NCBI RefSeq assembly: GCF_013167455.1
Contig: NZ_CP038328.1
Direction: 5' to 3' (one strand)
DNA from: Escherichia coli O157:H7
Lineage (GTDB): Bacteria; Pseudomonadota; Gammaproteobacteria; Enterobacterales; Enterobacteriaceae
Length of the DNA: 64,000 nt
Below, piece after piece: positions 3,001 to 6,000 of the stretch. Position numbers: made by a program. Numbering within the stretch: the stretch's first letter is position 1; each line of letters starts with the position of its first letter.

Positions 3001-6000
3001 GCCGGGCGTCATTTCTCCGGGCAGAAAGGAAATCTGTTGCATTATTCCGGCCCCTTTCAGTCAATGATGCGCATAATGGCGCTGCCTTCCGGATGCTGCA
3101 GGGCGTAATCCCGCAACCGGTAATAATGGACCGTCATGGCATAATTCTCCGTACGACAGGCATGATGGCTGTACGTCATCAGACAGGCGGCAATACCGGC
3201 GGCTTCCGGGCTCATTTCAGCGCGGTTACCGTTCATGGCATTGAACAGTACCCATGTTTCGTCATCATCATCATCCGGTTCGGGGGCCATAAATGCCCCG
3301 CCGTTGTTCAGGGTGTACAGATTCCAGATACCACCGCAGTAGTCTTCGCACAGACGGTCCATCCAGCCGAAGACACGGGGCTCCAGGGTGACCCACTGTG
3401 GAATGAGGCCAAAATGCTGCGGCCAGAAGCTGATGCGCTGTTCATCAGGGACGAGGCTGGCAACCAACTGAGGCGGATTATTCTCTGGTGTTGTAGCTGA
3501 ATAAATTGTGGGGGTATTCTGAGAAACGGTTTTCATGAGATAACTCCTTAAATAACAAATAAATGTGTGTTTTTCGGGAACGAAAGCTGAATGATTCCCT
3601 CACTCAGGGAAACGGCATCAGCGCAGGCTCTCCAGCATCGTTTCTGCCATCACCCACAATGCGCGATTGAGCTTAATGTCGGTATCAATGCTGTGAATGG
3701 CCCGGGTATGGATACGTTTTCCTTTTGCACTGCGACCGGAAATCCCGCCTTTCAGCATATTCTCCTGGATGGTCTGATATGCGCTCCACAGGTCCTTACC
3801 GTAATCCTCCCGGCGTCGCGGCGTCAGAATGTCGGCGGTGGTGACGGGCTGATGTTCGTCACCATAACGGTAAGTCAGTGCCGCCTGTGCCAGCGCCTGG
3901 CGTGCCGGTTGCGGCAGGACCAGCGACTGCATGGCATCACGCTTCTCCTCTATCCGGTCAAACACGCCCACCACCTCGTAAGCCCCTTCGATAACTTTCT
4001 CCACTACATTTCCCCGGTGTGGAACACGCACTTCCCCCAGAGACTGGCCACAGACGCACCCGTTCTGGCAGACGAACCTGAAGTAACCCGGCAGCATCTG
4101 GTAGCTGGAGGTACCGTCATGAGAGTTGAGCAGAATAATTTCAGGGACATGTTCTCCGTTTATCTCTCCGGCCCGCCGCAGACGCAGCATGTGTTTTGTG
4201 TATCCCCGGCGGCCCGGGTCGCGCACACGGGTCTGGCAGGCGAAGAACGGCTGAAAGCCTTCCCGCTGCAGATTTTCCAGGACGGTAATGGTGGGAATGT
4301 ACGCATACCGTTCACTGCGGGAGGTGTGCCGGTCTTCCCCAAAAATACTGGGTACATGGCGTATCAGTTCTTCATGTGTCAGCGGACGGTCACGGCGTAT
4401 CTGGTTTGCAGCATAACCAAAACGACTGGCTAATCGCATACTTTGCTCCTTATCGGTGGTTAAGATTTACTGGTGCAATAAATGAAAAAAGCCGCGTCTC
4501 CCGGAGAAGACGCGGCCTGACGGGTGAAATGAATAAGGTTTATTGTCTGAGAGGCCTTTCACTGGCGAGCCACGCATTAAGCGGCTTTCCGGTAACAATG
4601 GCTGGGGCTGTATTTACCTTTGATATTAATAATGTGCAGAGAAACGCATGGTTTACTCCTTAGATTTTAAGTTTGTCCTGGGCTACACCGACAGGTTTTC
4701 CGGATGTGTCGATGACTCCTACCGTCGGTACGCCATTTTTGATTTCGAAGAACGGTTTGTTGCTACCTGAGCACAGTTGATTGTCCCCGTATTCAATCAT
4801 TTGTGCTTTCCCGGTTTTCAGGTTAACTACCGAGACAGTGTAGTCGTAGCACCAGGCACCACCACGTTCAAGCACGAAAACATAGCTGTTATCTTTATAG
4901 TTGAACTGATTCTTTGTCTGGCAATTCATACCGTCAATTTCGGTACAGGAAAACGCTTCTGTAGTATTAACGTATTTGATGTTATTTGGCAGTTTTACTT
5001 GTTTCGCAGTAGCGAAGACAGAGAACAGAATAGTTACAGCAACGAGTAAAGTTTTGATAAAAGTTTTCATGATAGACTCCTTAAATTAGTTAACCGCAGC
5101 TACGTAGTTTTTCACCAGATACGCGAATTCATGCACGCCAATTTCACCGAACCAAACCAGGTAGGCCGGGTCATCTAAACCAAAGTAACGGTAGCCAACA
5201 ACTTCATGGGTTTTTGGGTTATAGAGTGTTACGATAAAGTCCCAGCCGCAGGTATTGGCTTTGCAACCGTCGCCCTGGAACCAGACTGTACCGTTAATGT
5301 TTACTGGCGTGATACCTCCACCAGGGCCATCCATATAGCCGCCTTTACCGAACATGCCGCTCAGTCCGACCGGTTTTAATGCTTTGTCGATAGCGGCTTT
5401 GTAGGTAGCGTCACCTTCGTACAACTCGTACGTTGATGGACACGCTCCAGGTTGTTCAGCCCAGGCTTCCGGGTTACAACTAAGAGCTTGTTTTACGGTA
5501 GCCGCTTCTGCGTTAAAGTTAAAGCCCGTGAACAGAACCGCCAGAAATAACATAAGGGTATGTAAACGTTTCATTGTAAATATTCTTCCGTTGTAAATGG
5601 CGCTGGAAAATTTCTCATCAGTGAAACCTTCCGGAAGTTTCCCCCCCTTGTATGATGTATATCGCCAGTATTTTATTTCATCCCGGCTGTAATTTTTATA
5701 TTCCCCGGCACGTGCAATAACGCGGACCAGAGATATAAGGCTCATTAATAACTTTACAGGTAATTTCATAATTAAATTTCCAGTGAGTGAATTGACAGGT
5801 GAGGGGTAAAACTTTCTCTCAGGTAATATATATCTGAAAATATTTTCAATAACACCAGACAGGAAAAACACCACCACAGGCGGTGGCGTTTCTTTGGGGC
5901 GTCTTTATTTAATCCGGGCCATCGCGTTTCTCAGTGCCAAATCTGCCTCTTCCGTTATATCCAGGCTTTTCTGCAATACCGCCTCTGACCGGGTCAGTGC

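Follow-up and report, generated by a model that had tools for sequence, protein, structure and literature searches.

The two genes and their products

The window analyzed here, a stretch of 64,000 nucleotides from Escherichia coli O157:H7 (RefSeq assembly GCF_013167455.1, contig NZ_CP038328.1), contains two adjacent small genes, designated orfA and orfB, that lie on the minus strand in a CP4-44-type genomic island and occupy its variable cargo slot between a patatin-like phospholipase gene and a DUF932 gene. Based on profile homology and predicted fold, orfA encodes a divergent relative of the Ivy family of lysozyme inhibitors, while orfB encodes a member of a secreted-protein family of jumbo phages. 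The features of the pair are as follows.

5086-5574, minus strand: orfA, 162 amino acids (aa), predicted exported, divergent Ivy-fold homolog; predicted mature protein, residues 25-162
5503-5574, minus strand: predicted Sec signal peptide of orfA, MKRLHTLMLFLAVLFTGFNFNAEA followed by A, called by sequence inspection
5248-5265, minus strand: Cys104-Lys-Ala-Asn-Thr-Cys109 loop of orfA, counterpart of the lysozyme-inserting CKPHDC loop of Ivy
4660-5070, minus strand: orfB, 136 aa, predicted exported, all-beta, four conserved cysteines, member of phrog_8968
5077-5082, minus strand: Shine-Dalgarno sequence AAGGAG, 6 nt upstream of the orfB ATG, read from the sequence

A sequence-only reading of this DNA had described two minus-strand open reading frames (ORFs) of 136 and 162 aa, each beginning with a signal peptide. 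Both ORFs are present at these positions and a signal peptide on each is supported, the calls being made by sequence inspection only. Each peptide has a positively charged n-region, a hydrophobic core (maximum 10-residue Kyte-Doolittle value of 2.8 in both) and an AxA-type site. The orfA peptide starts with MKR, and cleavage is predicted after AEA and before an alanine; that of orfB is MKTFIKTLLVAVTILFSVFATA followed by K, with a signal-peptidase-I type site (ATA before K) and no lipobox. The description of the genes as low in GC (guanine plus cytosine) content holds for orfB (41.4%) and not for orfA (48.7%), relative to 54-57% in the flanking genes; the upstream spacer is at 39.7%.

The layout is bicistronic, with orfB starting 15 nt past the orfA stop codon. 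Four cysteines are invariant across homologs in each protein (33, 45, 104 and 109 in orfA; 42, 50, 74 and 100 in orfB). The ratio of nonsynonymous to synonymous substitution rates (dN/dS), calculated against homologous loci, is 0.13-0.20 for orfA and 0.19 for orfB, and both are therefore considered real coding genes under purifying selection. Among complete E. coli genomes, 2247 of 5426 carry the pair at a coverage of at least 80%, and 1420 records reach an identity of at least 99%.

The start codon of orfA

The RefSeq annotation (Prokaryotic Genome Annotation Pipeline, PGAP) gives orfA a longer coding region, a 227-aa ‘hypothetical protein’ at 5086-5769 on the minus strand. The additional N-terminal part corresponds to a separate feature.

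5575-5769, minus strand: remnant of a third secreted-protein gene (its first ~63 codons), forming the N-terminal part of the PGAP 227-aa ORF

The extra 65 residues of the 227-aa model match the N-terminus of a secreted protein of 180 aa (48% identity over 63 aa, E = 1e-17); the gene for this protein is intact and located between patatin and orfA in a second common E. coli island type (loci L003-L008; L003:7098-7640). A nucleotide comparison shows that window positions 5822-5581 stand in place of L003 7048-7994, a segment of ~950 bp that holds the 180-aa gene. In both L003 and a phage contig (L009), in-frame stop codons and a Shine-Dalgarno sequence directly precede the MKRL start, and many orfA homologs have been called at 160-161 aa, starting at the same methionine as the 162-aa form. 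The homology of the remnant, the upstream stops and Shine-Dalgarno sequence in relatives, and the length of the homologs therefore identify the 227-aa RefSeq ORF as a chimera in which a deletion fused the gene remnant in frame to orfA. The 162-aa form given by the sequence-only reading is the better call. The cluster of the 227-aa protein at 90% identity contains ~1700 sequences.

orfA as a divergent Ivy-superfamily protein

It had been noted from the sequence that the segment DGCKANTCGW (orfA residues 102-111; window 5242-5271) resembles the CKPHDC loop of Ivy inhibitors, a likeness put forward at the level of a motif. Our analyses indicate a stronger relationship than was claimed, with remote homology, an Ivy fold, and a loop that is in register with CKPHDC.

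Searches of Pfam, the PDB and NCBIfam with the single orfA sequence gave nothing significant, and a word-indexed homology search recovered only relatives from E. coli and Shigella, down to 58% identity. In a profile search of the PDB, Ivy appeared at E = 1 with the loop in register. A HMMER search of 1.84 billion protein representatives with a profile of the orfA clade found 58 relatives, including proteins of 140-316 aa (E = 1e-22 to 1e-4); loops in the relatives include CEAHNCG, CEPHNCG, CKPHAC and CKPHQC. From this deep profile search we assembled a 24-sequence alignment of orfA and its relatives (A4), in which 18 of the 24 members (all of the distant ones) match the Pfam Ivy family PF08816 at E ≤ 1e-3, and 21 match it at E ≤ 0.1. 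The A4 profile matches Ivy structures in the PDB at E = 1.5e-13 (1gpq/1xs0), 1.4e-9 (4ps6) and 1.7e-9 (1uuz). Alignment of A4 to K-12 Ivy with hhalign gives a probability of 97% (E = 1e-10), and the E. coli orfA clade alone aligns to the same protein at E = 4.9e-4.

In every alignment made with hidden Markov models or hhalign, to 1gpq or to K-12 Ivy, the orfA segment C104-K-A-N-T-C109-G falls on the C-K-P-H-D-C-G segment of Ivy. The strict CKPHDC motif is not kept, the proline, histidine and aspartate being replaced (CKANTC), while both cysteines, the lysine, the spacing and the glycine that follows are retained. C104, K105, C109 and G110 are invariant within the E. coli clade; position 107 is asparagine in 8 of 12 alleles, histidine in 3 and aspartate in 1, and the loops of other alleles read CKANAC, CKAHAC, CKSNAC and CKSDAC. 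The predicted fold of orfA is that of Ivy, an antiparallel beta sheet flanked by helices. In a comparison with Pfam and with structures, neither orfA nor orfB matched the MliC/PliC, PliG or PliI families. The homology found by deep profile searches, together with the in-register loop, therefore places orfA, at the level of sequence and predicted structure, as a genuine but divergent protein of the Ivy superfamily with the same fold.

Hypervariability of the loop was considered and rejected, as the most variable stretches of orfA are residues 28-40, 46-54 and 95-103, not 105-108. A tblastn search of a phage genome collection with orfA gave no match, and literature searches on the orfA and orfB proteins, phage-borne Ivy proteins and SPN3US secreted proteins yielded no relevant report. 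The chromosomes of O157 and K-12 both have the canonical ivy gene as well.

orfB belongs to a jumbo-phage family of exported proteins

No match to orfB was obtained in Pfam, among PDB sequences or with PADLOC. The protein matches phrog_8968 over its full length (E = 3e-46, residues 1-132 on profile positions 1-134 of 135), and homologs with 31-37% identity are encoded by SPN3US-like (Seoulvirus) jumbo phages of Salmonella, Erwinia and Escherichia. The AlphaFold 2 (AF2) model of orfB is all-beta with a predicted local distance difference test (pLDDT) score of 73.9; the predicted fold had no informative match in the PDB or the AlphaFold database (AFDB) and bears no resemblance to any known lysozyme-inhibitor fold.

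In SPN3US, the orfB homolog gp084 is part of a tandem run (gp086-gp083) of genes for small exported cysteine-containing proteins, upstream of an SMC-domain gene. Within the run, gp085 and gp083 match phrog_8968 at E = 2.9e-8 and E = 1e-3, respectively, and hhalign aligns the orfB and gp083 families with all four cysteines in common columns (95.6%, E = 1.2e-8). As judged by these profile comparisons, the proteins of the array are paralogs.

Tandem phrog_9424, 17072, 8968 and 5248 paralogs recur in SPN3US-like arrays (L016, which is SPN3US 165783-167492; L017; L009:6598-9309; L018-L021), and the metagenomic relatives of the SPN3US array also hold two YfjT-family proteins. The YfjS/YfjT-like proteins of the phage arrays are of the same kinds as those encoded in the cargo slot of E. 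coli and Salmonella cryptic prophages of the CP4 type. Remote homology of orfB with YfjS is marginal at best: a direct comparison showed no similarity by BLASTP or hhalign (hhalign E = 0.23). Membership of orfB in the YfjS/YafY lipoprotein family PF20494 was rejected, as in a mixed alignment only YfjS itself matches this family and orfB has no lipobox. YfjS matches phrog_5248 at E = 4e-5 when its signal peptide is included, and at a marginal E = 0.015 (hhalign) without it.

The pair as a mobile cassette

Candidate terminators were located with a consensus scan and their fold energies were then compared to those of 200 shuffled sequences. Two hairpins frame the pair.

5864-5893, minus strand: terminator-like hairpin and U-run directly after the patatin stop codon (-17 kcal/mol, z = -3.8, 0 of 200 shuffles)
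4479-4518, minus strand: strong terminator-like hairpin (13 bp, 8 G-C pairs) and U-run after orfB and before DUF932 (-24.5 kcal/mol, z = -5.6, 0 of 200 shuffles)

Because of the hairpins on both sides and the AAGGAG that orfB has of its own, the cassette looks, from these sequence features, like a transcription unit in its own right.

The pair is also found on other backbones. On metagenomic jumbo-phage contigs (L009-L011, L018-L021), neighboring homologs of orfA (59% identity) and orfB (64%) are present and a patatin gene is absent; the order is YfjT-like (two genes), a 128-aa protein, orfA, orfB and a 129-aa protein, onward to SMC. The SMC proteins of L009 and Erwinia phage Asesino are 71% identical. 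In Salmonella CP4-like islands (L022-L024), which also have no patatin gene, an orfB homolog (33% identity) is directly followed by a gene for a 312-aa protein, the N-terminal half of which is Ivy-like (loop CEQGNC), and a similar 316-aa protein fills the yfjS/yfjT slot of another island (L012). Thus, Ivy-like and orfB-like genes are adjacent in three unrelated backbones. A single ‘plasmid’ match for the pair tells nothing further, as it is the same E. coli island again, riddled with frameshifts.

Two E. coli island types differ in their degree of divergence along the locus. Between them, orfA is 77% identical at the nucleotide level (window 5101-5581 vs. L003:7994-8468; dS ~0.9), while identity in the flanking patatin and DUF932 genes is 93-96%. 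This difference indicates cassette exchange, with a history of the slot that differs from that of the island backbone.

Several proteins of 282-316 aa (L012:3795-4745, L022:6477-7415, P0098, P0099, P0133) combine an Ivy-like N-terminal domain with a C-terminal domain containing four cysteines. The spacing of the C-terminal cysteines resembles that of orfB and the phrog_5248 proteins, and MAFFT aligns the cysteine columns. By hhalign, the C-terminal domain scores E = 0.1-0.46 and 0.27 against the orfB type and E = 0.0028 against the phrog_5248 group; a further comparison with phrog_5248 gave E = 0.03. It is possible, though not established by these alignments, that the fusions carry an orfB-type domain and so represent a ‘Rosetta stone’ for the pair. 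Island L012, which carries one of the Ivy-like fusions, has a DarT-Macro (DarTG-like) gene pair beside its integrase gene (L012:7232-8942).

Proposed function

We propose that the pair is an autonomous, mobile two-gene periplasmic cassette in which orfA would be a loop-inserting inhibitor of a peptidoglycan-cleaving glycosidase and orfB its partner or a second binder; we regard this proposal as an even call. Taken by itself, periplasmic inhibition of a peptidoglycan-cleaving enzyme is, we infer, the likely function of orfA. The protein would be exported by the Sec pathway and form its disulfides in the periplasm, and by analogy with Ivy its rigid loop would enter the catalytic cleft of a lysozyme or a lytic transglycosylase. 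Lysozyme inhibition by Ivy requires its loop, and variant loops exist within the family (PMC4262234); in vitro, lytic transglycosylases are inhibited by Ivy proteins as well (PMC10139938, PMC3660660). Since the loop proline, histidine and aspartate are replaced in orfA, its specificity is probably unlike that of canonical Ivy. The cassette lives on phages and integrative islands, and its target may for this reason be an enzyme that enters the periplasm from outside, most plausibly a phage tail lysozyme or transglycosylase, or a host lysozyme. For orfB, the recurring adjacency suggests a co-expressed periplasmic partner, a second binder or a function parallel to that of orfA, in an association that is not obligate.

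Several observations count against this proposal or parts of it. As a single sequence, orfA has no Pfam match even at E ≤ 10, and with the NCBIfam Ivy model NF007443 it scores 11.6 bits (E = 0.19) relative to a cutoff of 180, so that its own sequence falls under the threshold. The loop histidine, which canonical Ivy and 17 of the 18 distant relatives retain, is an asparagine in the window allele. The AF2 model of orfA is of moderate confidence (pLDDT of 70.8 overall, ~61 at the loop and <50 for residues 135-145). E. coli Ivy is a weak inhibitor of lytic transglycosylases (PMC10139938), and in the window no peptidoglycan hydrolase is encoded beside the cassette. A consensus scan between the upstream hairpin and orfA detected no promoter-like site. 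Finally, many E. coli have an intact dynamin-YjcZ-patatin operon and a 71%-identical allele of orfA with orfB precisely absent, and SPN3US itself encodes orfB homologs without an Ivy-like gene; the two proteins are therefore not obligate partners.

A more specific version of the proposal, which we consider improbable, takes the pair to be an ‘anti-muralytic’ periplasmic module exchanged between nucleus-forming jumbo phages and the CP4-type islands of Enterobacteriaceae. The Ivy-like protein would block the tail lysozyme or transglycosylase of a competing phage, or a secreted muramidase toxin, and so act in superinfection exclusion or phage defense as a structurally unrelated analog of Spackle, while orfB and its paralogs would be further exported blockers of envelope-penetration steps. 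There is a precedent in phage T4, which exports a periplasmic protein that inhibits the phage's own tail lysozyme (PMC7650644).

Alternative explanations

The sequence-only reading had linked the two genes to the neighboring patatin operon, as periplasmic immunity or inhibitor proteins for the patatin-like phospholipase. The genes do adjoin on the same strand, and the whole block from patatin to DUF932 is found in 2121 E. coli genomes, relative to 2247 with the pair and 2498 with patatin. Outside the island lineage this link breaks, as the pair has no patatin gene beside it in either the jumbo phages or the Salmonella islands; the co-occurrence within E. coli is therefore attributed to common descent of a single island lineage and not to repeated, independent association. 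The phospholipase has no signal peptide, so it should not meet the two proteins, which are predicted to be exported to another compartment. A stable terminator-like hairpin separates patatin from orfA, the patatin operon is found in lineages that lack orfB, and the divergence of orfA relative to its flanks points to cassette exchange. In addition, PADLOC has no defense-system model for orfA or orfB, and the dynamin-like gene of the operon is truncated in the window. We do not regard the cassette as functionally belonging to the patatin operon, and we consider an immunity role toward the phospholipase very improbable indeed.

More weight is due to an explanation in which the Ivy fold has been reused as a general periplasmic binding scaffold with a target other than a peptidoglycan glycosidase, orfA acting together with orfB and its paralogs in superinfection exclusion, receptor masking or as a periplasmic chaperone. 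Consistent with such reuse, the loop proline, histidine and aspartate are not conserved, orfA lies within arrays of small exported phage proteins with no assigned function (YfjT-like, phrog_9424, phrog_5248, phrog_17072), the equivalent slot of K-12 CP4-57 is filled by yfjS and yfjT, and K-12 Ivy is itself annotated as a ‘periplasmic chaperone, inhibitor of vertebrate C-type lysozyme’. This is set against the invariance of the disulfide loop, its lysine and the following glycine, a loop length equal to that of Ivy, and the fact that inhibition of lysozymes or lytic transglycosylases is a property of every characterized Ivy member (PMC4262234, PMC10139938); on balance we find the scaffold explanation rather unlikely. 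It is less probable still, and in our judgment doubtful, that the cassette is cargo in decay that no longer functions in O157:H7. Deletions have occurred in the slot, with the 180-aa gene truncated and fused to orfA and orfB missing in other lineages; the adjoining dynamin-like gene is a pseudogene, and the Shine-Dalgarno sequence of orfA (GGAAGA) is weaker than in relatives. Decay is at odds with the presence of both ORFs intact in >2200 complete genomes, 1420 of the records being at an identity of at least 99%, with dN/dS values well below 1, and with the conservation of all cysteines and of the signal peptides.

Setting in the window

Positions 4400-8700 of the window are 100% identical to several O157:H7 genomes. 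The genes on either side of the cassette are as follows.

7874-8557, minus strand: truncated dynamin-like gene, CrfC/RdcA-like C-terminal part (a 227-aa ORF, annotated as a pseudogene to ~8626)
6972-7877, minus strand: RdcB/YjcZ-family gene
5905-6975, minus strand: patatin-like phospholipase gene, stop codon at 5905
3618-4439, minus strand: DUF932 gene, followed by antirestriction, RadC/YeeS, YeeT, CbeA, CbtA and YeeW genes

Only the C-terminal third of the dynamin-like gene of the dynamin-YjcZ/RdcB-patatin operon is left in the O157 window (7874-8626, minus strand), while the gene is intact in other E. coli (794 aa; L004:2612-4996). In the window the operon is missing its 5′ end and, presumably, the promoter. 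PADLOC gave weak matches only for this operon (dynamin as LeoBC and patatin as ‘phospholipase effector’).

A gene for a TonB-dependent outer-membrane receptor (9010-10632 and 11730-12497, minus strand) is interrupted by an IS3-family insertion sequence (10710-11923, plus strand) with overlapping transposase ORFs of 108 and 296 aa; in O157:H7 TW14359 the receptor gene is uninterrupted (2148 bp). The cbtA toxin gene of the CbtA/CbeA pair (1488-1751, minus strand) appears truncated, with an ORF of 87 aa, and is annotated as frameshifted in TW14359.

Significance

Approximately 40% of complete E. coli genomes, including those of O157:H7, encode a second protein of the Ivy type, which the current Pfam and NCBIfam models miss and which carries only the annotation ‘hypothetical’. 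The finding adds a mobile variant to a known family of inhibitors, together with its pairing with an uncharacterized phage protein family. If orfA does inhibit a peptidoglycan-cleaving enzyme, the set of lysozyme and transglycosylase inhibitors would gain a mobile, phage-shared subfamily with a different specificity loop, and the protein would offer an entry point into the unexplained exported-protein arrays of jumbo phages and the yfjS/yfjT-type cargo of cryptic prophages. For annotation, it is also relevant that the 227-aa RefSeq model, with ~1700 sequences in its cluster, is chimeric.

Comparison with known systems

The closest known system is Ivy itself (inhibitor of vertebrate lysozyme; E. 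coli YkfE, PDB 1GPQ/1XS0; Ivyp1 of P. aeruginosa, 1UUZ; PF08816). Like Ivy, orfA is predicted to be exported with a mature length of ~130-140 residues, and it has the six-residue Cys-Lys-x3-Cys-Gly loop, closed by a disulfide and placed between two beta strands. It differs in the loop sequence (CKANTC rather than CKPHDC) and in having an extra N-terminal disulfide element, with a second conserved cysteine pair (C33-C45) and a ‘CPY’ motif, which is common to the distant relatives. Furthermore, orfA is located beside orfB on a mobile island and on jumbo phages rather than at the chromosomal ivy locus, and unlike Ivy it is missed by the Pfam and NCBIfam models. The MliC/PliC, PliG and PliI inhibitors are likewise small exported proteins of Gram-negative bacteria (PMC2267010), with no Pfam or structural match to either orfA or orfB.

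For orfB, the nearest counterpart is the SPN3US array (gp083-gp086; phrog_5248, 8968, 17072 and 9424). Both orfB and gp084 belong to phrog_8968 and have the same size, signal peptide and four-cysteine pattern, but in SPN3US itself the slot before gp084 is taken by the orfB paralog gp085 (phrog_17072), not by an Ivy-like gene. YfjS/YafY and YfjT (K-12 CP4-57 and CP4-6; PF20494, PF27224) take up the same cargo slot in islands of this kind, in the order GTPase, DUF932, small exported proteins, antirestriction and RadC. YfjT-like genes are also found in the jumbo-phage arrays, and YfjS has a ‘G-x-C ... YYxLxD ... C’ core in common with the phrog_5248 paralogs of orfB.

T4 Spackle (gp61.3) offers a functional analogy only, as a small, phage-encoded, Sec-exported periplasmic inhibitor of a tail lysozyme (PMC7650644). 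Its fold is unrelated to that of orfA, there is no sequence relationship, and it inhibits allosterically (PMC7650644) rather than by insertion into the cleft, as is proposed for the orfA loop.

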